Virus record (IMG/VR): IMGVR_UViG_3300047557_001693
Span: 28,532 to 92,531 of that record
Length of the DNA stretch: 64,000 bases
Strand: one strand, 5' to 3'
From: a virus
Lineage: Duplodnaviria; Caudoviricetes
The notes below the pieces were generated by a model. It was given only the letters and a program-made list of their open reading frames with translations. It ran no database searches and was not told the DNA's origin. This document shows, piece by piece, positions 3-10,893 of the stretch. Every line of letters begins with the position of its first letter. Positions within the stretch are counted from its first letter, which is position 1. Made by a program: the position numbers and the translations under genes.

Positions 3-1253
3 ATGATATTAAATCTTAAAAATGATATTGCATCACTTAATCCTTTAGGATTATCATCAATAAGTTCTTCACCTACTATAAATCCAACAACAATTACATT
101 AGTTTCTCCTACAGGTCAAGAAGTTGCTTATAATAATAAATTATTTAAAATACAAAAGCATACATATGTTTCTGCAACAAATATATTAACATTTGGAAAT
201 GTGGCAACATTTACTCATTTTCAATTATCTATATCAGGTTTAGGAACTATAGCTGATGTTCAAATAAACAGTGCTATAACACCTTCAATACTTGCAACAA
301 TTGTTGCTCTTAATATTAATAATTCTGGAACAGGATTAACTGCAACAAAAGTTGGTAGTGTAGTAACAGTAACTGCTCCTCCATTTACAGGAGGATCGTT
401 TAACGGTGTTCCTATTAGAATAACTACAATTAATACTCCACCATATAATGCAGGTAGTGTTGTAATAAATAGTACTACATATCTAACAACTGCTAATTGG
501 GCTGATTCTCCTATTACTGGTGCTATTTTTGCAGGAGGACAAAGTTTTCCACCTACGTTAATTAAACAAATACCATTTACAGGTGGAGTAAATCAAATAA
601 CTACCTCAAAAGTTAGATTTAGATCACCATTACAACCAACAACTTCTCCACAATATGGAACAGGTAATTGGGCATATAATTCTCAATTTTTATCATATAA
701 TTATAATTTTGGAGATTATGTATTTAATGGTGTTTATTCAGGTGGTATAGATCCTACTGTAGGAAAACTTAAAGTAGAAGTTTTAACTTCAGGTTTAAAT
801 CCTTTACCACCTCCCTTAATTTCAAACTTATATACTGATTCAACTCCTCAAAACTATTTAAGTAGACAATTGTTAGTTAATATATTTAATAATACAAATT
901 CATTTCCAAATAACTTTCAAATTAATTTACTTAATCCATCAAGTTCTGTTTGTACTATACAATCACCACCTACTAGTTTTGATTATTTTAATACTCACGT
1001 ATTTAGATATTCTTATGAATATGTATCTTCACAATCTATAGGTGGTCAATATGCAGATTATGTAGATGTAACTACAACATTTAGTGGTGGTGTAGATCCT
1101 GTATTAACTCCATATGAAGGTGAATTTCAATCAGGTGATATTGGTACATTTGTAACAGATAATCCTTGTGAACCTGTAGTTGTAGAACAAGAATGTTTAT
1201 CTAACAATGATATAATTAGTATTATTAAGCATATAGATAAAATAGTAAGATAA
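3..1253 (+). CDS. Phage tail/structural protein (5'-truncated)
   Basis: ORF open from the window edge; T/S/G/P-rich beta-type sequence with repeated F-x-GG motifs; C-terminal 'ECLSNNDIISIIKHID' helix; directly upstream of the fibre genes. Confidence 0.55.
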   Translation: MILNLKNDIASLNPLGLSSISSSPTINPTTITLVSPTGQEVAYNNKLFKIQKHTYVSATNILTFGNVATFTHFQLSISGLGTIADVQINSAITPSILATIVALNINNSGTGLTATKVGSVVTVTAPPFTGGSFNGVPIRITTINTPPYNAGSVVINSTTYLTTANWADSPITGAIFAGGQSFPPTLIKQIPFTGGVNQITTSKVRFRSPLQPTTSPQYGTGNWAYNSQFLSYNYNFGDYVFNGVYSGGIDPTVGKLKVEVLTSGLNPLPPPLISNLYTDSTPQNYLSRQLLVNIFNNTNSFPNNFQINLLNPSSSVCTIQSPPTSFDYFNTHVFRYSYEYVSSQSIGGQYADYVDVTTTFSGGVDPVLTPYEGEFQSGDIGTFVTDNPCEPVVVEQECLSNNDIISIIKHIDKIVR

Positions 1254-1254
1254 T

Positions 1255-2988
1255 ATGCCATTTTTTGGAAACAAAAGAAAAGACTTTAGTATTCAACCTC
1301 CTACACAGCAGGTTAATGCTACTCCTTTCTTTGTAACAGATAGTGCTAATATTGATTTTACTTTAAATAATTTAAACTTATCAGCAAACCTAACTTTAAC
1401 AGGTGTTATAGCAGGAACTTATGGTAGCAGTACTCAAGTTCCTGTTTTACAAATAGATCAATGGGGTAGAATAACAGGAGTTACTTTACAAACTATATCT
1501 TCTTCAGGATTAGCATTAGAAACTAATGGTACACCTAATGGTGATCAAACACTATTAAATCTTGTTGCAGGTACTAATATGACTATAACTGATGATGGTT
1601 TAGGTAATATTACTTTTGATGCAACTGGTGGTGGAGGTTCAGGAACTGTAACTTCTGTTGGTGTTACTGCAGGTACAGGTATATCTGCATCAGTTACTAA
1701 TCCTACAACTACACCTAATATTACAATAACTAATACTGCTCCTGATCAAACTGTAACTCTTACAGCAGGTACTGGTATATCTGTAAGTGGTACTTATCCA
1801 AGTTTTACTATAAGTTCTACAGTAACTGGTGGAATACCTAAAGGAACTGCATCAGGTACTGACACATATACTACAACTATAAGCGGTGTTACATCTTATA
1901 ATGATGGAGATGCATATCTTATTAGGTTTACTAATGGGAATACTACAGGATGTACTTTAAACATAAACTCATTAGGAGCAAAAACACTTTACAGAAACAA
2001 TGATGGTGCATTAATAGGTGGAGATATAATATCAGGAGCAGAAATGCTTTGTGTTTATAATTCTACGTTAAATGGATTTCAGACTATTGGTACAGCTCCT
2101 AATACGCTTCTTGGTTATGTTACTAATGATGATTCTGTAACCATAACAAAAGGTCAAGTTGTTTATGCTTTTGGTGGCCAAGGAGATAGAATGACTGTCA
2201 AGTTAGCCAATAATACATCTGATGCTACATCAGCAAGAACAGTAGGTGTTGTATTATCTACATCAATAGCTGCAAATCAAAAAGGGCTTATAATGATGCA
2301 AGGATTGTTGGATGGGTTAAATATACTTCCAACAGCAACTTGGTCTGATGGTGATCCTGTATACTTAGGGGCAACAGCAGGGTCTATTACAAAAGTAAAA
2401 CCATATGCTCCAAATCACTTAGTTTATGTTGGAATAGTTACTACAGCGAGTAATGGTTCAGCAGGTAGAATGTATGTAAATATTCAGAATGGCTATGAGC
2501 TTGATGAACTGCACAATGTACAAGCACAATCACCAAGTCTTAATGATACTCTGTATTATGACAGCACTGTTTCTCCTGGTCAATGGAAGACAACAAGTGT
2601 AAATACATTATTAAATACAAGTATTAAAACAGGCTCTTGCGGTGTTACATTTGATGGAGGAGGACAGGTTATACAAACTAAAACTGCATATGTTCAAGTT
2701 CCTTATAACGGAACACTAACAAGTTGGACATTAGTAGCAGATGTATCAGGTAGTTGCACTATAACTGTATTTAAAGACACTTATGCTAACTACCCACCGA
2801 CAACGCCTACAGATAATGTTTATACAGTTCAACCAGCATTATCATCTGCAATTAGAAATCAAAACTTGAGTCCAACATATGTAGGCTCACAAGCAACTGT
2901 AACAGCAGGAGATTACATAGGGTTTACTATATCTGCTATTACTACTATTACTTGGGCTAACTTAACAATACAAATAACAAAGACATGA
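1255..2988 (+). CDS. Tail fibre protein
   Basis: Fibre-shaft motifs 'GVIAGTYGSSTQVPVLQIDQWGRIT', repeated 'TAGTGIS' units and 'NGYELDELHNV'; T/G-rich. Confidence 0.75.
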   Translation: MPFFGNKRKDFSIQPPTQQVNATPFFVTDSANIDFTLNNLNLSANLTLTGVIAGTYGSSTQVPVLQIDQWGRITGVTLQTISSSGLALETNGTPNGDQTLLNLVAGTNMTITDDGLGNITFDATGGGGSGTVTSVGVTAGTGISASVTNPTTTPNITITNTAPDQTVTLTAGTGISVSGTYPSFTISSTVTGGIPKGTASGTDTYTTTISGVTSYNDGDAYLIRFTNGNTTGCTLNINSLGAKTLYRNNDGALIGGDIISGAEMLCVYNSTLNGFQTIGTAPNTLLGYVTNDDSVTITKGQVVYAFGGQGDRMTVKLANNTSDATSARTVGVVLSTSIAANQKGLIMMQGLLDGLNILPTATWSDGDPVYLGATAGSITKVKPYAPNHLVYVGIVTTASNGSAGRMYVNIQNGYELDELHNVQAQSPSLNDTLYYDSTVSPGQWKTTSVNTLLNTSIKTGSCGVTFDGGGQVIQTKTAYVQVPYNGTLTSWTLVADVSGSCTITVFKDTYANYPPTTPTDNVYTVQPALSSAIRNQNLSPTYVGSQATVTAGDYIGFTISAITTITWANLTIQITKT

Positions 2989-3230
2989 CATATAAAATTA
3001 TATCTACACGCACAACACCTGATGGTGTTTTATTTGCAAATGTTGAATATAACTTTGATGGATATATTTATACAGCAGAGATTCCTATTCCTGTTCCATT
3101 GAATGAACAACAAATAACTGAAAGCATTGTAAATCATGGCAAAAGTGAACAATGGAGAAGAGAGGCTATTGCCAACCTTCCTAACATAGTTGCATCATTA
3201 CCATTGAATCAAGAAATAGTTATTGAGTAA
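2985..3230 (+). CDS. Small fibre-associated protein (possible chaperone)
   Basis: 81 aa, overlapping both fibre genes (ATGA and TAATG junctions). Confidence 0.5.
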   Translation: MTYKIISTRTTPDGVLFANVEYNFDGYIYTAEIPIPVPLNEQQITESIVNHGKSEQWRREAIANLPNIVASLPLNQEIVIE

Positions 3231-4951
3231 TGGCTTTAAGATATTGGGTAGGAGGTACTGGTAATTGGGATGCAGCAAATACTGCAAACTGGTCTGCTAC
3301 ATCTGGTGGTGCAGGAGGCGCTTCTGTTCCAATAGTATCTGATGATGTATTCTTTGATGGAAATTCTGGTACTGGAACTGTAACTCTTACTGCAGCAGCA
3401 GTTGTAGGAACAATAGATTTTACAGGCTATACAGGAACGTTTAGATTTGGTGCAAATTTAACTTCTGGTAATACAACATTAGGCACAGGTACTACCTATA
3501 CTACAAATGCTACAGTTACATCTTATAATTTTTCACCAAGAAATATTAACTCCACCTTTACAGCTAATGGTAAAATATTACCTGTAAATTTAAGTACTGG
3601 AGGTATGAGTGGAGGTAATACATTAACCTTTGCTGGAAATGCAGATTTTCAAGGTAATTTAATAACTAACACAGCTACACATAATTATAAAGCTGCTACA
3701 GGAACTACAATTGATTTAAGGATTGGAGGCAATATTGATATTAGAGCTATGCTTACCAATGCTACTGACCATGTTACGATTAAGGGATATGGTACTTCAA
3801 AAACATTTATTGCATCAGGTGGGGTTGCTACTAATTTAAGAGTTTCATTTGTGTCTGGAAGCACATATACATCTGGTAGTAGTGGAAATATTGGAACTGG
3901 AAATCATTTCTTTACAGTAGAATCTGGAGGTCAATTTACGGCTGTTTCTACACATACATTTAGTAATGTAGGAACATTAACTTTATCAGGATTTAATGCT
4001 TCAAATAATTCAGACTTCATAGCTTATGTGCAAGGAACATTGTCGTTAGCAACAGATACTGTTATTAAATCATTTATAAGAATTGATGGTCCAATGGTTA
4101 TCACATCAACAGGTGGTTCAAGATTATTATTGGAAGGAAATTGGAATCATTCAAATACATCAAACTGCACAATAGATATATTAGAATTTAGTGGTACAAC
4201 AACAAGTACAGTAACAACTTGGACAAATACTACAACTATTCAAGTTAAGAGTTTAATAATAAATAAAACAGGTGGTGGTAGTGTAGTATTTAATCCTGCT
4301 AATCCATTATATCCATTTAGATTGTTTATTCCAGCAGGATCAATATATTCTTGGACTCATACATCTGGTACAGTTACTCAAAGCAGTACATCTGTAATAT
4401 TTATAAGTGGAAATGCTGTTACTTCACAACTTAACTATTCATGTGCAGTTCCTTCTTTTAAGTTTTCTTATTTAGAAATAAATACAGGAACACTAAATTT
4501 AAGTTCAACACTAAACTGTGCATTACTTAGATTATCACTTGCGTCAAATACAACATTTACATCTCCAACAACATTTGGATTTACAGTAGATAGACTTCAA
4601 GCAATTAATACATCAAGTGCATTAAGAATTATTGTATTAAAATCAGCAGTTACATATAGCATATTGAATGATTTACTTATGCTTGGAGGTGGACCTTTTG
4701 GTTCTATATCATTACTTGCATCAACAGCACCAACTAAAGCAATATTTAATTTAGAAAATACAGCTCAACAGCAAGTTGAATTAGTTAATCCAACAAACAT
4801 AGACTCATCAGGTAACAATGGTGTTGGTAGTCCAATAAAGCAGACTATTTATACTTTTAATGGAACCATTACAACTACCTTCAATTGGGGAACGGGTATA
4901 GCTCCTGTACCTTCAACTGCTGCAACTGTTGGATATACCTTTGTAAATTAA
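3230..4951 (+). CDS. Tail spike / receptor-binding beta-helix protein
   Basis: N-terminal 'RYWVGGTGNWD..NWSATSGGAGGASVP..DDVFFD' motif of phage and adhesin beta-helix proteins; T/G/S/N-rich body. Confidence 0.65.
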   Translation: MALRYWVGGTGNWDAANTANWSATSGGAGGASVPIVSDDVFFDGNSGTGTVTLTAAAVVGTIDFTGYTGTFRFGANLTSGNTTLGTGTTYTTNATVTSYNFSPRNINSTFTANGKILPVNLSTGGMSGGNTLTFAGNADFQGNLITNTATHNYKAATGTTIDLRIGGNIDIRAMLTNATDHVTIKGYGTSKTFIASGGVATNLRVSFVSGSTYTSGSSGNIGTGNHFFTVESGGQFTAVSTHTFSNVGTLTLSGFNASNNSDFIAYVQGTLSLATDTVIKSFIRIDGPMVITSTGGSRLLLEGNWNHSNTSNCTIDILEFSGTTTSTVTTWTNTTTIQVKSLIINKTGGGSVVFNPANPLYPFRLFIPAGSIYSWTHTSGTVTQSSTSVIFISGNAVTSQLNYSCAVPSFKFSYLEINTGTLNLSSTLNCALLRLSLASNTTFTSPTTFGFTVDRLQAINTSSALRIIVLKSAVTYSILNDLLMLGGGPFGSISLLASTAPTKAIFNLENTAQQQVELVNPTNIDSSGNNGVGSPIKQTIYTFNGTITTTFNWGTGIAPVPSTAATVGYTFVN

Positions 4952-4957
4952 TTAACT

Positions 4958-5416
4958 ATGACTAAAATAACTAAAACAAGTAAAAAAGGTGTAGACCTTA
5001 TTAAAAAGTATGAAGGATTTAGTTCTAAACCATACCTCTGTCCTGCTAATGTAGCTACAATTGGTTTTGGTGCAACATTCTATCCTGATGGCACTAAAGT
5101 TAAATTAACTGATGATCCAATAAATGAAGCTGTTGCTGAGGTTATTCTAAAGAAACATTTAGAAAAATTTGAGCAATATGTAGATAGTTATTGTACAGAT
5201 GCTTTAAATCAAAATCAATTTGATGCATTAGTATCTTTTTGTTTTAATCTTGGTCCAGCTAATCTTAAAGCTAGTACATTATTAAAGAAAGTAAATGCTA
5301 ATCCAAATGATCCTACTATAAGAACTGAGTTTATGAAGTGGGTAAAAGCAGGTGGTAAAACTCTTAAAGGTCTAGTTAGAAGAAGAGAAGAAGAAGCAAG
5401 TTTATACTTTAGTTAG
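4958..5416 (+). CDS. Lysozyme, GH24 (T4/P21-like) endolysin
   Basis: 'IKKYEGF..KPYLCPANVATIGFGAT', 'NQNQFDALVSFCFNLG' and 'GLVRRREEEASLY' motifs. Confidence 0.92.
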   Translation: MTKITKTSKKGVDLIKKYEGFSSKPYLCPANVATIGFGATFYPDGTKVKLTDDPINEAVAEVILKKHLEKFEQYVDSYCTDALNQNQFDALVSFCFNLGPANLKASTLLKKVNANPNDPTIRTEFMKWVKAGGKTLKGLVRRREEEASLYFS

Positions 5417-5424
5417 TATATTTG
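5417..5424 (+). promoter_or_regulatory. Bacteroidota sigma70 -7 element (TAnnTTTG)
   Basis: TATATTTG ending 5 nt before the ATG at 5430; possibly a leaderless transcript. Confidence 0.6.
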
Positions 5425-5429
5425 TATAT

Positions 5430-6782
5430 ATGATTAGGTATATTTTAATTATACTATTTATATATACTAAAGTATATTCACAAGGTTCTAATACTTGTAC
5501 AGGTGCTGCAGCTAATCCTGTAACTTTACCATTCTTTACTAATAATCAAACTACTTGTGGTGATTTAAATGATTATACAGGAAGTAATCCATGTATATTT
5601 ACAACCACAGGTAATTATTATGGTGGACAAGATTGGTTATATAGTTTTGTTCCACCTCAAGATGGTTATATAAATATTGTTCTTAATGATGTACAACCAG
5701 CTACAAATACATATCCAACACTTGTATTATCAAGTGCATGTCCTGGAACTGCAGGAGCATGTATGGGATTTTCAATATATAATCCAGCAACTAGTAATGC
5801 ATCTATAGTTGAATATGTACAAGGAGGTCAAACTTACTTTGTTTTAGTAGATACTTATGTTTGGGGAAATATATTTTCAAACTGTTATCAATTTGATTTA
5901 AATATTCAATTTACTCCTGTACCAGTTCAACCTGCTTGTACTAATATTGGATTTAGTAATAACAATTTTACAGGATGGTTTGGTACAACAGGTTTATCTA
6001 CAAGAGCATACATTGGTGCACCAACACCTAATTATGATGCAACAGCATTAGGTATAGTTAATGGAAGACATACTATAATGACAGGTGGTAATGATCCTTG
6101 TGCAGGATTTCCAAGAGTAGATCCATTAGGTGGACCATTTTCTGTTAGATTAGGAGATGCTAATGTTAATTCTCAAGCAGAACAATTAACACAAACATTT
6201 ATGGTAACTAATACTAATAATAGTTTTACATATAGATATGCTGTAGTGTTTGAAGATCCTGGTCATACATCTAATGAACAACCTTTTTTTAGAGCATTAT
6301 TAAGAGATCAGAATGGTAATGTTATTCCATGTTCAGAATTTGTAGTATCTGCTGCTGGTAATTTACCTGGATTTTTTAACTCACCAAACTGTACAGGAGT
6401 TAGATATAAACCTTGGAGTACAGTAAATGTAGACCTAGATAACTATATAGGACAAGCAGTTACAGCAGAATTTACTACAGGAGATTGTACTCAAAGTGCA
6501 CACTATGGTTATGCTTATATAGATGCTGCATGTTCACAATCATTTTTAGATGCATATCCTGATACTATATGTGTAGGAGAAACTATAACATTAACTGCAC
6601 CTAATGGTTATCAATCTTATCAATGGTTACCTACTAATCAAACTACACAAAGTATTAATGTTACACCATCTGTAAGTACAAATTATCAATTAAATTTAGT
6701 ATCATTTAATGGATGTGTTAGAACAGTTCAGTTACCCATTGTAGTTGTACCAGATCCTACTGCTGCTATATACACAAACTAG
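5430..6782 (+). CDS. Secreted SprB-like / T9SS-cargo-like adhesin domain protein lacking a CTD
   Basis: Sec signal ending VYS|Q; Cys-paired domains 'SVRLGD..AEQL..TF.VT...FTYRYAVVFEDPGH...QPFF' and 'TTGDC...HYGYAYIDAAC'; Ig-like repeat 'TICVGETITLTAP.GYQSYQW..T.Q.TQSI.VTP'. These resemble Bacteroidota gliding-motility-associated proteins. Confidence 0.75.
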   Translation: MIRYILIILFIYTKVYSQGSNTCTGAAANPVTLPFFTNNQTTCGDLNDYTGSNPCIFTTTGNYYGGQDWLYSFVPPQDGYINIVLNDVQPATNTYPTLVLSSACPGTAGACMGFSIYNPATSNASIVEYVQGGQTYFVLVDTYVWGNIFSNCYQFDLNIQFTPVPVQPACTNIGFSNNNFTGWFGTTGLSTRAYIGAPTPNYDATALGIVNGRHTIMTGGNDPCAGFPRVDPLGGPFSVRLGDANVNSQAEQLTQTFMVTNTNNSFTYRYAVVFEDPGHTSNEQPFFRALLRDQNGNVIPCSEFVVSAAGNLPGFFNSPNCTGVRYKPWSTVNVDLDNYIGQAVTAEFTTGDCTQSAHYGYAYIDAACSQSFLDAYPDTICVGETITLTAPNGYQSYQWLPTNQTTQSINVTPSVSTNYQLNLVSFNGCVRTVQLPIVVVPDPTAAIYTN

Positions 6783-6808
6783 GTACAATAAGTAGTATAA
6801 TTTTTGCT

Positions 6809-6816
6809 TATATTTG
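6809..6816 (+). promoter_or_regulatory. Bacteroidota -7 promoter element
   Basis: TATATTTG(CA) in the 81-nt intergenic gap upstream of 6864. Confidence 0.6.
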
Positions 6817-6863
6817 CAGTGAAATAAGGTGTTTCATAAGATATACGATGTAATATTTATCTT

Positions 6864-7331
6864 ATGAAATACAAATTTTTAATATCATTTTTTGCAATAT
6901 TACTGTTTTCAGTAGGAAGTTCTCCAGAACCTTTTACAAAAGGTGATGTAAGAATTGTACCTATTATTGAGAATGAAGATCTAGGTCCTAAGTATTGGTA
7001 CATAAGGACTATTAAACTGTATTATAAAGATAAATTACCTCATGGGATAGAACTTAGAAAAGGTCCTCCTTTGGATTCTTATTGTTCTGATGAGACTGAT
7101 TTAACATTTTACTCTAACTCTGATTCATTAACTATCAAGAGTCATAGTAGACTTTCTTGTGAAATATTAGCAATGTATAACTTGTCAGAAAAAGAGTCTG
7201 ATTGGTTAAAATCTCATTTAGTATATAGATTAAAAATATACAATATAGTTACTGAAAATAAGTATTATATCTATGTAGATAATGTATCTTATTTTAAGGA
7301 TTTATTTAACAAATATAATGTAAACTATTAG
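6864..7331 (+). CDS. Exported hypothetical protein
   Basis: N-terminal signal peptide MKYKFLISFFAILLFSVGSS; no recognisable domain. Confidence 0.6.
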   Translation: MKYKFLISFFAILLFSVGSSPEPFTKGDVRIVPIIENEDLGPKYWYIRTIKLYYKDKLPHGIELRKGPPLDSYCSDETDLTFYSNSDSLTIKSHSRLSCEILAMYNLSEKESDWLKSHLVYRLKIYNIVTENKYYIYVDNVSYFKDLFNKYNVNY

Positions 7332-7357
7332 GTATAAATGGTAATCTGTATATTAAG

Positions 7358-7365
7358 TATATTTG
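7358..7365 (+). promoter_or_regulatory. Bacteroidota -7 promoter element
   Basis: TATATTTG 14 nt before the ATG at 7380, supporting 7380 rather than 7338 as the start. Confidence 0.6.
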
Positions 7366-7379
7366 TTAAAAGATTTGTT

Positions 7380-7940
7380 ATGAAAAATTTGTTTTTGTCA
7401 TTATTTTTTATATTGTTAACTATAACAGTATTTGGACAGGTACCAACACCTAATATTGCTGATGGACAAGTAGTATGTCCTAATGCAGTACATTTCTATG
7501 GAGATCAAGTAATTAACCCTACTTCAACATATACATTTAACATTTTACCTCCACAAGCATTTACTGTTGTTGGACAACAAATACAAGTTACTTGGTTAAC
7601 ACCTGGAGTATACACTATGACTATGACAGAAACTAATGCAGCAGGTTGTCAATTTGTAACAGTAGCTAATATAACTGTACAACCTAATGTTATTGCTACA
7701 ATAGACCCTATAGTATTATGTCAAGATGGTGGTAATGTAACTATTACAGGACAAAATCTTGGTACTAATCCTATATTTAATGGACCTGGAGTATCAGGAA
7801 ATACTTTTAACCCTGCAGGATTAGCTCCTGGAACTTATAATATAACTGTTGTTTCTCAGACTGCAAATGGCTGTTCTATTACTGGAGCAGGTACTGCAAC
7901 TGTAGAACCTTTACCTACTGGAATAATATATACTGACTAA
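7380..7940 (+). CDS. Secreted two-Ig/PKD-like domain protein (SprB-repeat-like) lacking a CTD
   Basis: Signal MKNLFLSLFFILLTITVFG|Q; 'VTWLTPGVYTMTMTETNAAGC' and 'GPGVSGNTFNP..LAPGTYNIT....NGCS' repeats; ends 'PLPTGIIYTD'. Confidence 0.75.
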   Translation: MKNLFLSLFFILLTITVFGQVPTPNIADGQVVCPNAVHFYGDQVINPTSTYTFNILPPQAFTVVGQQIQVTWLTPGVYTMTMTETNAAGCQFVTVANITVQPNVIATIDPIVLCQDGGNVTITGQNLGTNPIFNGPGVSGNTFNPAGLAPGTYNITVVSQTANGCSITGAGTATVEPLPTGIIYTD

Positions 7941-8491
7941 TGAAATATACACTACTTACATTATTGATAAGTATGAATCTCATGGCACAAACAACATATG
8001 AATTATGTGATTCATATATTCAGAAGGAAATAAGAGCAAACACTTCAGCACAATCTATAAACTGGAGTGTTTCCCCTTTAATACCTTATCAAGTTAATGA
8101 TGATGTTATGACAATAACTATCAGTGACTTGGGTACATATGTAATTACTGCTACTTTTAGCAATGGTTATTGTTATACTAAAGACTTATTAGTATTACAA
8201 ATCATTGAATGTAAGGAAAGTTTTTTATGGATACCTAATTCATTTACACCTAATGATGATAGAGTTAATGATACATTTGGTGCTTATGGAATTAACATTA
8301 AAGATTTTAAACTTACTATCTGGAATAGATGGGGAGAATTACTTTTTGTAAGTAATGATTTAAACAATAGATGGGATGGTACATACAAAGGTGAAATTTG
8401 CCAAGATGATGTCTATACCTATAAACTTAGTTATAAAGATGTAAACAATAAACAATACACCAAATTTGGTAGAGTAACACTTTTTAAATAA
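7940..8491 (+). CDS. T9SS type B sorting domain protein (gliding motility-associated C-terminal domain, CHU_C)
   Basis: Signal ending LMA|Q; one Ig-like domain, then 'LWIPNSFTPNDDRVNDTF...LTIWNRWGELLF......WDGTYKG...DDVYTYKL.........GRVTLFK', the canonical type B CTD. Confidence 0.9.
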   Translation: MKYTLLTLLISMNLMAQTTYELCDSYIQKEIRANTSAQSINWSVSPLIPYQVNDDVMTITISDLGTYVITATFSNGYCYTKDLLVLQIIECKESFLWIPNSFTPNDDRVNDTFGAYGINIKDFKLTIWNRWGELLFVSNDLNNRWDGTYKGEICQDDVYTYKLSYKDVNNKQYTKFGRVTLFK

Positions 8492-8499
8492 CCTAACTT

Positions 8500-8808
8500 A
8501 TGAATCAACCAATTCTTTTAGCTTTAATTGCACTAGGTTCAGCTGTAGTAACTACAATTGTACCTAGATTATTTAGTAAAAAGAAAGATACAGTAGATAT
8601 GCTTGCTGAAATTCAAGATAAACTATATAGTGAAATAGATAGACTTGAAAAAAAGATTACTATTCTTGAACAAAGAGAACATGAAGCATATCTATTAGAA
8701 GAAAAATTAGTTAAAAGAATAGCAGAATTAGAACAAGAAAATATAAGACAAGCAAATGAAATTCAACAACTTAAAGCAGAACTTGAGAAATATGTCAAAA
8801 ATAGTTAA
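8500..8808 (+). CDS. Membrane-anchored coiled-coil protein (holin/antiholin candidate)
   Basis: N-terminal hydrophobic helix followed by a heptad coiled coil; in the lysis cluster. Confidence 0.5.
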   Translation: MNQPILLALIALGSAVVTTIVPRLFSKKKDTVDMLAEIQDKLYSEIDRLEKKITILEQREHEAYLLEEKLVKRIAELEQENIRQANEIQQLKAELEKYVKNS

Positions 8809-9052
8809 GAACTCTTTCATTGAATCTTTTAAAGGAAACAATGGTAAGATAGATCATAAAAGATTAACTGTATTTGCATTTGTAATAGGATTCTTTATTA
8901 CAACAGGAATTATACTTTATAAAAAAAATCAAATACCTAATTCAGAATTAGTAGAAATAGTATTAATAACAATGACATCTGTTATACTAGGAGGGATGGG
9001 TTTGACTAAAATAAAAACAAAAATAGAAAAACAGACAGAAAATGAAACTTAG
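8792..9052 (+). CDS. Holin candidate (two TM helices)
   Basis: Two hydrophobic segments and a basic C-terminus; overlaps the M15 endolysin start. The ATG at 8792 is preferred over 8756. Confidence 0.6.
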   Translation: MSKIVKNSFIESFKGNNGKIDHKRLTVFAFVIGFFITTGIILYKKNQIPNSELVEIVLITMTSVILGGMGLTKIKTKIEKQTENET

Positions 9053-9554
9053 TAGAAACTTTAGCTTAGATGAGATGTTAAAATCTCAGACAGCAAGTAG
9101 ATGGGGATTTGATGAGCAATTCAATCCTCCTGATGAGGTAATAAACAATTTAACTTTGTTGTGTACAAAAGTACTACAACCTATTAGAGATGCATTAAAA
9201 GCTAGTATTACTGTAACTTCAGGTTATAGATGTCCTAGACTTAATGCTAAAATAGGTGGTGCATATACTATTATTAATGGTAAACCTGTACAAACTTCAC
9301 AGCACTGTTATGGTCAGGCAGCAGATATTAACTTTATTAAAGATGGTAAAGAATTTAATGGTTCTTTAGTATCTGTAATAAAAGATTTATGTGCAGATCC
9401 TGATTTTAAATTTGATCAATGTATATTAGAATTTGGTTCTGATGAGAATCCTTCATGGATTCACATATCATATTCTAATGATAACAATAGAATGCAAGTA
9501 TTAAGAGCATATAAATCTGGTAAAAAAACTTTATACAAACCCTGGAAACTATGA
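9042..9554 (+). CDS. Peptidase M15 (M15_3) endolysin
   Basis: 'KLSRNFSLDEM', 'VTSGYRCPRLN..IGG', 'SQHCYGQAAD' and 'WIHISY' zinc motifs. Confidence 0.9.
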   Translation: MKLSRNFSLDEMLKSQTASRWGFDEQFNPPDEVINNLTLLCTKVLQPIRDALKASITVTSGYRCPRLNAKIGGAYTIINGKPVQTSQHCYGQAADINFIKDGKEFNGSLVSVIKDLCADPDFKFDQCILEFGSDENPSWIHISYSNDNNRMQVLRAYKSGKKTLYKPWKL

Positions 9555-10138
9555 GTAAAAATAAATCTTGGTTTACTATTGAAAGAATAACAATAATTGT
9601 ATTATTAGTTATGTTATTCTTATTACAACAATGTCACAATGCATGTCCTAAAGAACCTTGGGAAGTAACTAAAACAGTTATTAAAACTCACAGAGATACT
9701 ATTACTAAGGTTAAAGTGGATACTATTACAAAGTATGTTACTTTAAAAGTACCTAAACCAACTCCTGATCCTCAAGATACTGTATTAAGTGTATATACTC
9801 AAGAGCATAGTGACAGTAGTTTAGATGCTATATTTATTAGTAAAGTAGATGGTGTATTAGTAAGCTCTGATTTTAAATACAAACTTAAGGTACCTAAAGA
9901 AATATATAGAACCATTACTCAAGTAGATACAATAACTAATACTGTAACTAATATAGTTAAGGTTAATAAGAATGTATTAGCAATGGGTGGTTTAATATTA
10001 GCTAGTCCAACAGCATATGGTTTTGATGCAGGTATGGGTATATCTTTTTATCACAAAAAAGGTTATCTTTACCAGCTGAACTATCTACCACTATCTAGGA
10101 CAGTAGTAGTAGGTTTTTCATACCAATTAAATAGATAA
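9551..10138 (+). CDS. Spanin-like membrane protein
   Basis: N-terminal TM helix ending in QQC, extended 'DTIT' beta-linker and C-terminal amphipathic beta strands; directly after the endolysin. Confidence 0.5.
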   Translation: MSKNKSWFTIERITIIVLLVMLFLLQQCHNACPKEPWEVTKTVIKTHRDTITKVKVDTITKYVTLKVPKPTPDPQDTVLSVYTQEHSDSSLDAIFISKVDGVLVSSDFKYKLKVPKEIYRTITQVDTITNTVTNIVKVNKNVLAMGGLILASPTAYGFDAGMGISFYHKKGYLYQLNYLPLSRTVVVGFSYQLNR

Positions 10139-10140
10139 TT

Positions 10141-10893
10141 ATGATAACTCTAAACCAAATGATTTATCAGATATATGAAGACCTTCAGATTTCATCTGAT
10201 GATACTTCATTAGATAAACGTTTAATTAAAGATTTAATTAATCAAGAGAGAGCTAATTGGATAAGAAAAGAACATAATAAGAACAGAAGTATTGATGATA
10301 ATATTATACAAGATTTAGGTTGTGTACCTATGTCATTAGTTAATAGACAATCTGATAACTGTTGTGATGTATTTATAGATTGTAAAATACTTAGATCATC
10401 AACTAAAATACCTAATGCAATAGAATTAAACCATGAAAAAATTATTACAAGAATTGCTCCTGTCGATTTCATGTCTATCCCTATTTATTTTATGGATTAT
10501 GATCATGCTATTTATTATGGCAATGGTAGGTATAATACCAAATCATTAGGTGCATTTATTAAAAATAATTATCTATATATTGTTTATAATAAAGGTAATC
10601 ACAACAAACTTATTGAAACTTTAAATATTCAAGGAGTATTTGAAGACCCTACAGAAGCAGGTACTTATCAAACTTGTGATGGTAAACCATGTTTTACTTG
10701 GGATTCTCGTTATCCTATTAATGCATGGATGTGGCAAACACTTGTTAAACCTGCTGTTCTTAATGAATTGAGAACTAAGAGAACTCTTTATAGAGATGAA
10801 AATAACAATGCTAAAGATGATGCTATACCAACAGTAGCAGCTAATTTTACACAAGCTGGTACTGATCCTGGTAGCAATAGACAACAAGAATGA
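10141..10893 (+). CDS. crAss-like tail ring / head-tail connector protein
   Basis: 'MITLNQMIYQI', 'QDLGCVPM', 'C.ILRS..KIP', 'GVFEDP' and 'YPI' motifs; position before the IHF-like, Ttub and Tstab genes. Confidence 0.7.
   Translation: MITLNQMIYQIYEDLQISSDDTSLDKRLIKDLINQERANWIRKEHNKNRSIDDNIIQDLGCVPMSLVNRQSDNCCDVFIDCKILRSSTKIPNAIELNHEKIITRIAPVDFMSIPIYFMDYDHAIYYGNGRYNTKSLGAFIKNNYLYIVYNKGNHNKLIETLNIQGVFEDPTEAGTYQTCDGKPCFTWDSRYPINAWMWQTLVKPAVLNELRTKRTLYRDENNNAKDDAIPTVAANFTQAGTDPGSNRQQE

Follow-up and report, generated by a model that had tools for sequence, protein, structure and literature searches.

Three neighbouring genes of a freshwater phage classed as crAss-like, hereafter called head, middle and carrier, are on balance probably the parts of a split modular adhesin that is assembled by strand complementation and exported by hitch-hiking on a single substrate of the host type IX secretion system (T9SS). 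All three lie in a stretch of 64,000 nucleotides, hereafter called the window, which is part of a viral record of 92,531 bp in IMG/VR (IMGVR_UViG_3300047557_001693, estimated to be 64% complete). A preliminary description had proposed that the three proteins supply, in order, the parts of one large Bacteroidota surface adhesin. This anatomy is supported: the head corresponds to the N-terminus of a host adhesin, the carrier to its C-terminal end, and the trio recurs as a unit. The features of the cassette are as follows.

5430-6782, plus strand: head, 450 amino acids; open reading frame (ORF) with an AlphaFold2 (AF2) model and homology to host adhesins
6750-6779, plus strand: C-terminal tail of the head, residues 441-450, ending in IYTN before the stop codon; proposed donor strand, conserved in viral heads
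6864-7331, plus strand: p155, 155 amino acids with a hydrophobic, leader-like N-terminus; ORF of no known family
7380-7940, plus strand: middle, 186 amino acids (200 if the start is at 7338); ORF with a weak PKD match
7905-7937, plus strand: C-terminal tail of the middle protein, residues 176-186, ending in IYTD before the stop codon; donor strand predicted by complex prediction
7940-8491, plus strand: carrier, 183 amino acids; matches to PF13585 and TIGR04131 above their cut-offs

The stop of the middle gene and the start of the carrier gene share one base. The ORF of p155 is a fourth one in the region and was not named in the preliminary description.

In the proposed scheme all parts would enter the periplasm through Sec, by leaders that follow the Q-rule of Bacteroidota. 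The carrier, an immunoglobulin-like (Ig) domain followed by a type B C-terminal domain (CTD), would be a substrate of the host T9SS and would be held at the surface by a host protein of the PorP/SprF type, which is invoked for the anchoring because the phage encodes none. Each tail would supply a strand to complete the next subunit's Ig domain, so that the head joins the middle protein and the middle protein joins the carrier. Head and middle, lacking a CTD, would ride out on the carrier, and only this last piece would need a T9SS signal. The outcome would be an infected cell that shows on its surface a short adhesin whose tip is host-like and of the lectin type. Modelling predicts that the middle tail docks on the carrier; we infer that the head docks as well, that the parts leave the cell as one complex and are shown at the surface, and whatever phenotype may result.

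Domain architecture and host origin

Head, middle and carrier each open with a Sec-type leader followed by glutamine, just as the preliminary description had stated: ...KVYS precedes QGSN in the head, ...TVFG precedes QVPT in the middle protein and ...NLMA precedes QTTY in the carrier. Leaders were judged by eye from the translations, as was the glutamine of the carriers, and this residue follows the leader in 20 of 20 head, 10 of 10 middle and 12 of 12 carrier homologues. Sec leaders of Bacteroidota are usually followed by glutamine, the Q-rule set out in the accessible text of PMC5837995, and phage proteins that obey it are noted for Porphyromonas phages in the available portion of PMC10367356. 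No lipobox cysteine was found in the cassette leaders, and the cassette yielded no match to FimA/Mfa, chaperone or usher families in Pfam, NCBIfam or PHROG.

Only the carrier ends in a T9SS sorting domain, again in line with what had been described. It consists of a leader (residues 1-16), Gln17, one Ig-like domain (about 17-95) and a type B T9SS CTD (about 98-183). Residues 98-174 match CHU_C (PF13585) with E=1.3e-16 and 60.9 bits against a cut-off of 27, and the match to TIGR04131 has E=2.1e-14 and 53.4 bits against a cut-off of 35. This is the sole CHU_C match in the 92,531-bp record, and neither CHU_C nor TIGR04131 matched the head, p155 or the middle protein. When the carrier was folded alone with AF2, the predicted local distance difference test (pLDDT) was 79-94 for the CTD and 43-63 for the Ig domain, which was modelled with five strands. 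The low values of the Ig domain fit a domain that may be incomplete. The middle protein has a leader (1-19), Gln20, two Ig/PKD-like domains and the tail (176-186). The stalk of Ig/PKD repeats that had been described for it stands as a two-domain protein whose PKD match is marginal, its 23.5 bits being equal to the cut-off. The middle family comprises 41 proteins, all on contigs of at most 52 kb, and the carrier family 35 proteins on contigs of at most 99 kb; no member of either was found on a contig of bacterial-chromosome size.

The head comprises a leader (1-18) with Gln19, a PPC/collagen-binding-like domain (about 19-165), a jelly roll resembling carbohydrate-binding modules (CBM) and MAM domains (about 168-372), an Ig-like domain (about 376-440) and a free tail (441-450). 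Its AF2 model has a pLDDT of 89.6 and a predicted template modelling score of 0.82, and the last 10 residues are without secondary structure. In VIA-align comparisons, residues 17-161 resemble ColG s3b (Z 12.1, root-mean-square deviation 2.4, 108 residues aligned) and residues 168-372 the porphyran-binding CBM 8xmz (Z 12.2, root-mean-square deviation 3.3, 130 residues aligned).

A search with the head among longer proteins gave 521 matches at E≤1e-5. The best were bacterial proteins of 1640-1967 amino acids (P0001-P0030) with PKD domains, SprB repeats and CHU_C. Their residues 1-455 are 61-69% identical to the head at 96-100% coverage, leader included, and the carrier maps to the last 134 residues of the same adhesins with 35% identity. 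These adhesins are encoded on bacterial contigs of up to 4.2 Mb. Among species-representative genomes their bearers are freshwater Bacteroidia/Flavobacteriales metagenome-assembled genomes (MAGs), where the gene occupies a conserved locus downstream of ftsA-ftsZ. In none of 79 bacterial loci was the head followed by a stop codon within 60 amino acids: 62 complete ORFs extend 254-1771 amino acids beyond it, most of them with an end of the CHU_C type, another 16 leave the locus before they end, and one (L042; L numbers denote loci) has a frame break. Viral head homologues were found at 30 loci, of which 29 are complete and one, L017, is cut by the contig end; the 29 complete heads (379-459 amino acids) all end at one and the same position.

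A maximum-likelihood tree was built from nine phage heads and 35 host N-terminal parts taken from the top matches, and was midpoint-rooted, with a few distant rows on long branches. The nine phage heads form one clade (support 100/99) nested in host sequences, with the 1955-1967-amino-acid host adhesins as its sister. This topology fits a single capture from a host followed by spread among phages, and the phage head is, as far as its sequence tells, a copy of the tip of a chromosomal host adhesin. The head is nested in the host SprB-like adhesin family and stops after residue 450, short of the single-chain architecture of head, stalk and CTD.

In each of three independent DNA assemblies the contigs are interrupted several times within the head gene at about 5500-6240, with several loose contig ends near 6236-6268 and one 233-base skip from 6262 to 6496. 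The rest of the cassette lies on single long contigs. The breaks suggest strain-level hypervariability of the ligand-binding domains of the head.

The C-terminal tail, its recurrence and its predicted docking

All 20 aligned heads and all 10 aligned middle proteins end in the tail motif P.P..[I/L/V]x[H/T/S][D/N] directly before the stop codon, and none of 12 aligned carriers does. The endings of the window are IYTN and IYTD; many others have SHD or SHN, and L002 has SDQN and SDN. Among 41 database relatives of the middle protein the tail is present in 39, the other two being fragments or aberrant, and 34 have IYTD as their last residues even where overall identity is as low as about 60%. The tail aligns, in the fused host proteins, with the first strand of the next PKD domain (...P.PVASF..., then ...C.EPV...), and the mature carrier begins just before the cysteine equivalent to the host ...C.EPV... 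position. By this alignment the break point falls within a domain, between its first strand and the remainder. The terminal asparagine or aspartate is invariant in phages and not conserved in hosts. The protein directly upstream of the carrier bears a tail of the type [T/V]LSPI[Q/S]H[N/D] and the more distal protein one of the type [L/I]G[P/A/S]I[S/T]H[N/D]; these two consistent classes suggest two acceptor sites in the chain.

Two other readings of the tail were considered and rejected. A covalent link of the SpyTag kind is at odds with the carriers' Ig domain, which has no invariant lysine, and an intein-like reading of the terminal H-N is at odds with the Ig-like fold and with the stop codon that follows. 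At L117:2915-4276 and L118:3018-4394, different heads of 453-458 amino acids with an unrelated N-terminus end in ...VFTN or ...IYTN upstream of middle and carrier genes, so that the tail is borne there by unrelated cargo.

The preliminary description had asked for a survey of the three-gene layout, and the trio was found in many phage contigs. A scan of IMG/VR with the carrier alignment gave 309 CHU_C-encoding stretches, of which the best 80 loci were examined; an earlier pattern scan of viral contigs with the carrier sequence alone, unlike this alignment-based one, had found no match. A small carrier of 140-215 amino acids is present at 46 of the 80 loci (36 distinct sequences), and only long fused CTD proteins of 460-1225 amino acids at the other 34. 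ORFs with both a leader and a tail occur at 37 of the 46 small-carrier loci and at none of the 34 long-CTD loci (Fisher p=2e-14); tail ORFs were called by a strict regular expression, and some loci are near-copies, so that not all are independent. There are 69 such ORFs, 55 of them distinct, with lengths of 150-632 amino acids. Of the nine small-carrier loci without one, L113, L116, L120, L125 and L156 are truncated immediately upstream of the carrier, and L119, L126, L135 and L186 have variant tails missed by the expression (...IEHN, ...PIYKQ, ...NITH and ...PIFH).

The full cassette consists of a head, a two-Ig middle protein of about 185 amino acids and a carrier of about 185-190 amino acids (Ig plus CHU_C). 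It was found in the window and at L002/L004, L015, L018 (in a different gene order), L019/20, L026/27, L028, L030 and L031, and the contig of L029 ends after the middle gene. Head and carrier alone are present at L021, L024 and L025, and L022/23 combine a head with a 111-amino-acid mini-protein of leader plus CTD. The bearers include crAss-like genomes (the window, L015/L114, L115 and L122), genomes with a 1186-amino-acid sheath-like neighbour (L008, L009 and L016) and contigs of 100-320 kb, groups that are unrelated to one another. Between otherwise syntenic crAss-like relatives the 450-amino-acid head is exchanged for one of 294 amino acids; this swap and the variety of heads (150-632 amino acids) recall the modular exchange of receptor-binding proteins.

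Several further observations concern these loci. The 111-amino-acid proteins at L022:7415-7750 and L031:2728-3063 are a leader and CHU_C only, the smallest conceivable T9SS substrate, and the gene at L022 adjoins that of a tail-bearing head. Beside the cassette in large viral contigs stand leader-bearing proteins of 589-765 amino acids (L021:9309-11078, L021:11088-13376 and L024:9084-11381), the first of which matches Chondroitinase_B with E=1.5e-59. Their C-termini may be another kind of T9SS sorting domain, in which case several secreted cargoes would stand together. In the two published megaphage records L193 (LR745206.1) and L194 (LR756502.1), of 634-642 kb, CHU_C matches occur at four and three places, respectively; the two proteins inspected are long, fused and leader-bearing (1205 and 898 amino acids). 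Among GenBank phages, the region as DNA gave only a 65% match, to its lysozyme part, and a tblastn search with the carrier gave three records, none from a cultured phage, the two megaphage matches being to long fused CTD proteins; no small carrier was found in the cultured phages of this set.

Docking was modelled with three chains, namely residues 366-450 of the head and the mature forms of middle protein and carrier, with a separate alignment for each chain. The prediction of the trio called for in the preliminary description favours the pairing of middle and carrier. The interface score ipSAE, scored for the carrier's interface only, was 0.70, 0.70 and 0.69 in three runs and 0.00, 0.01 and 0.40 in controls, and the mark was passed. 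Contacts agreed by at least 98% between runs, and the partner pLDDT was 85. The predicted interface joins residues 176-186 of the middle protein, together with 112 and 114-116, to carrier residues 18, 20, 29-38, 57 and 69-84 of the Ig domain, with tail residue 183 packed against carrier residues 31-34, 69, 71, 82 and 84. The highest control, 0.40, was the one in which the middle protein was replaced, and it kept 63 confident contacts; the head tail, which is very similar, may therefore take the carrier site when that site is free.

A rather unlikely alternative, though one to be weighed with care, is that the three proteins act separately. Only the carrier would then be exported by the T9SS, and head and middle would stay in the periplasm or at the outer membrane as soluble mimics of the host adhesin tip, with the tail recognised by a T9SS or attachment component of the host, by a domain of the host adhesin, or by a factor for protease protection or sorting. 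The loci with head and carrier only, or with the 111-amino-acid mini-protein, would suit such a division, as would the fact that the complex score covers the carrier interface and not the contact of the head. The strict tie between tails and small carriers (37 of 46 against 0 of 34 loci) argues against it, and so does the passing of controls by the predicted interface of tail and Ig domain. Tail-bearing solo heads in four contigs without a CHU_C gene (20-95 kb) would also favour separate action, but these contigs are fragments, estimated to be only 7-32% complete.

These same solo heads are one of several points that weigh against the split, carrier-exported adhesin. The T9SS translocon would have to pass a non-covalent complex. 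PorP/SprF-like proteins hold type B CTD proteins on the cell surface, and a cognate PorP-like gene is usually paired with the latter, according to the accessible part of PMC11205867; such a partner gene is absent from the phage record, and none was evident beside the host adhesin in the loci read. The lack of a visible PorP-like gene had been remarked upon before: a search with PorP_SprF (PF11751) gave no match in the whole 92.5-kb record (about 64% complete) and 7-8 copies in each of three candidate-host MAGs. As to the models, the low pLDDT of the carrier's Ig domain could equally reflect an alignment of 12 rows. Of 80 solved complexes 58 reach the ipSAE mark, as do 2 of 110 mismatched pairs; these counts are only roughly valid for three chains folded with their own shallow alignments. 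The docking score is a measure of model confidence, and the split domain may have been rejoined from knowledge of intact PKD/Ig folds. Finally, the tails of head and middle may compete for one carrier site instead of forming a chain.

Residency and genomic setting

From its sequence the phage of the window is crAss-like. The virion structural protein at 10141-10890 has matches in 49 phage records; those listed by name are either crAss-like (Cellulophaga phi14:2, Bacteroides DAC15/17 and PhiCrAss isolates) or uncultured phages. All genes from base 3 to 45473 lie on the plus strand in tight packing, and ribonucleotide reductase, primase and helicases are encoded on the other arm of the record.

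Several lines of evidence indicate that the cassette is resident in this lineage. The ratio of nonsynonymous to synonymous substitution rates (dN/dS) against L015 is 0.25 for the head, 0.18 for p155, 0.41 for the middle gene and 0.15 for the carrier, compared with 0.14 for the M15 endolysin gene downstream, and against L115 it is about 0.30 for middle and carrier alike; the four cassette genes are, on these estimates, under purifying selection. The region has an even G+C content. Each border of the cassette is spanned by contigs of three other studies, that between lysozyme and head (X4 record 17, X9 record 25 and X11 record 4) and, in the same three runs, that between carrier and p102 (X4 record 24, X11 record 5 and X9 record 31), and the relatives L015/L114, L115 and L122 are syntenic with the window. 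The stretch 4958-9554 is represented by 0.67-0.73 of its sampled words in 15 freshwater or lake metagenome runs, all from studies other than the possible source samples. No RNA run was listed among the datasets holding the region; X19, labelled RNA-Seq, is probably DNA and gives partial cover.

It is very improbable that the trio is a decaying, fragmented copy of a captured host adhesin gene or an assembly chimera with host DNA, even if the head is very similar to the host gene and the pieces stand in the order of the fused protein. Pseudogene fragments were rejected, as head, middle and carrier each have their own leader with its glutamine and dN/dS lies below 0.5 (0.15-0.41). The even G+C, the synteny of the relatives and the bridging contigs likewise led to rejection of a chimera or host insert, the artefact that the preliminary description had singled out as a danger. 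The 36 distinct carriers and 55 distinct tail proteins found across many phage types point the same way.

Two further features flank the cassette.

4958-5416, plus strand: lysozyme (endolysin 1); PF00959 with E=1.6e-40, phrog_7
8500-9554, plus strand: p102 (N-terminal transmembrane segment and coiled coil), p98 (membrane protein) and M15 peptidase; profile matches

The M15 peptidase (endolysin 2; 9042-9554) matches PF08291 with E=2.7e-14 and phrog_894 with E=1.5e-38, and the cassette is thus flanked by two endolysin types, a GH24-like lysozyme and an M15 peptidase, in one late operon. p102 has a weak match to an Rz-like LysB (E=0.068), and p195 (9551-10138) has a hydrophobic start and then a cysteine-containing stretch. 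On sequence features, p102, p98 and p195 may be holin- or spanin-like proteins of a crAss-like Bacteroidota phage. A scan of 4800-9700 for promoters and terminators found nothing above shuffled sequences.

The position between two endolysins, beside these holin- and spanin-like genes, would be telling if the cassette had a part in lysis or virion release in the crAss-like lineage, such as to weaken or mark the outer membrane at a late stage of infection. The window, L015/L114, L115 and L122 do share the order lysozyme, cassette, p102, p98, M15 peptidase, and an M15 peptidase also follows the cassette in L002. In most other phages, however, the cassette stands beside genes that have no tie to lysis (thymidylate synthase-like genes, DNA ligase, GH16 and 2H phosphoesterase). 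The head copies an adhesin tip with CBM-like folds and no lysis protein, and the cassette proteins have neither a lipobox nor, leaders apart, a membrane segment. No lysis-family match was found in PHROG or Pfam for the four cassette proteins, only the flanking genes being lysis-like. A lysis role is improbable on these grounds, and the placement of the system in a lysis region, as first described, applies to the crAss-like lineage and not to the other phages.

No Pfam, NCBIfam or PHROG match was found for p155, whose relatives fall into 37 representative clusters, all unannotated; Atlas gives unnamed clusters only. p155 adjoins the cassette in L015/L114, L115, L122, L119 and L135 and is, by this conserved neighbourhood, an accessory member of the cassette in some lineages.

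Farther from the cassette, the region 12654-45473 holds giant plus-strand ORFs of 1584, 2396, 627, 4413 and 1895 amino acids, as expected for crAss-like phages; that of 627 amino acids has no PHROG match. Upstream of the lysozyme gene, at 3-4951, lie four ORFs (416, 577, 81 and 573 amino acids) rich in T, S, G and N. Their only family match is that of the C-terminal part of the 577-amino-acid protein to a PHROG whose function is unknown. The four, probably tail fibres, are not the same in the window as in its relative L015.

Implications and comparison with known systems

A wider possibility, advanced tentatively, is that the cassette exemplifies a general tag-and-carrier device, in which any periplasmic protein with a tail of about 10 residues could be clipped, through complementation of a split Ig/PKD domain, onto a minimal carrier of Ig and type B CTD and be exported by the T9SS folded and non-covalently bound. 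T9SS cargo is not known to be exported without a CTD of its own; a rider that lacks one and travels on a carrier would, if real, change that rule. With such a device, hitch-hiking through the T9SS would be seen for the first time, by way of a natural docking pair made from a split domain, with heads of 150-632 amino acids copied from host adhesins and swapped freely among phages. Its small natural tag (about 10 residues) and its carrier (about 185 amino acids) would lend themselves to surface display in Bacteroidota. The spread of the cassette among crAss-like phages, tail-sheath phages and contigs of 100-320 kb points to a common and selected re-dressing of the infected-cell surface, whether for adhesion, for exclusion of other phages or for decoying.

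As for the role of the split adhesin, the infected cell might stick to the substrate or cells that the host adhesin binds, the display might mask the cell or act as a decoy against other phages, or it might interfere with the host's own adhesin. Gliding, adhesion and superinfection exclusion could conceivably be affected. Nothing was found in favour of the earlier suggestion that the SprF/T9SS channel is jammed.

Phage-encoded T9SS cargo as such is already known, which narrows the novelty first claimed for the system. Cryophage encodes enzymes with a type A CTD as T9SS cargo, as reported in the available text of PMC7468147, and T9SS sorting-domain ORFs occur in gut phage lineages according to the part of PMC6949934 that is accessible. 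Fused type B CTD proteins are likewise common in viral contigs (34 of the 80 loci). The published cargo, as far as those texts describe it, shares with the cassette that it is addressed to the host T9SS and varies between phage strains; it is single-chain (type A CTD in Cryophage), whereas the cassette has a type B CTD, split cargo and a conserved docking tail. The split, tail-linked form does appear to be new: a full-text literature search, with subscription journals and supplements outside its scope, found neither split cargo nor the tail motif nor a hitch-hiking passage through the T9SS described.

Compared with SprB/SprF-type cargo, the phage carrier shares the C-terminal domain, above family cut-offs, and the Sec leader; it differs in being minimal (about 185 amino acids), in having no PorP-like gene in the phage and in having its functional parts on other polypeptides. 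The host adhesins P0001-P0030 have the same leader and the same PPC-like, CBM-like and Ig domains as the phage head. They are single chains with a stalk of about 1100-1500 amino acids, whereas the phage uses three chains with a leader each and, between them, about three stalk domains. A sequence search with the carrier found a single solved chain, the grappling-hook protein GhpA of Aureispira (PDB 9flp, 5898 amino acids), of which residues 5812-5886 match the carrier CTD with E=6e-11; GhpA is a giant single-chain bacterial fibre, neither split nor phage-borne.

Two systems resemble the cassette in the way its parts are proposed to join. SpyTag/SpyCatcher is an engineered split of the Ig-like CnaB2 domain, in which a short terminal strand docks and an isopeptide bond forms. 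SpyTag is thus covalent, and the cassette gives no sign of a covalent link. The other is donor-strand complementation in pili, both type V (FimA/Mfa of Bacteroidota; PMC4789730) and chaperone-usher, in which an Ig-like fold is completed by the terminal strand of a neighbour, and the same is proposed for the cassette. The cassette differs from these pili in having no lipoprotein precursor, no proteolytic maturation signal and no sign of a homopolymer. Its export would use the T9SS and not the route of type V pili, and its donor strand would be C-terminal, derived from a split PKD domain.

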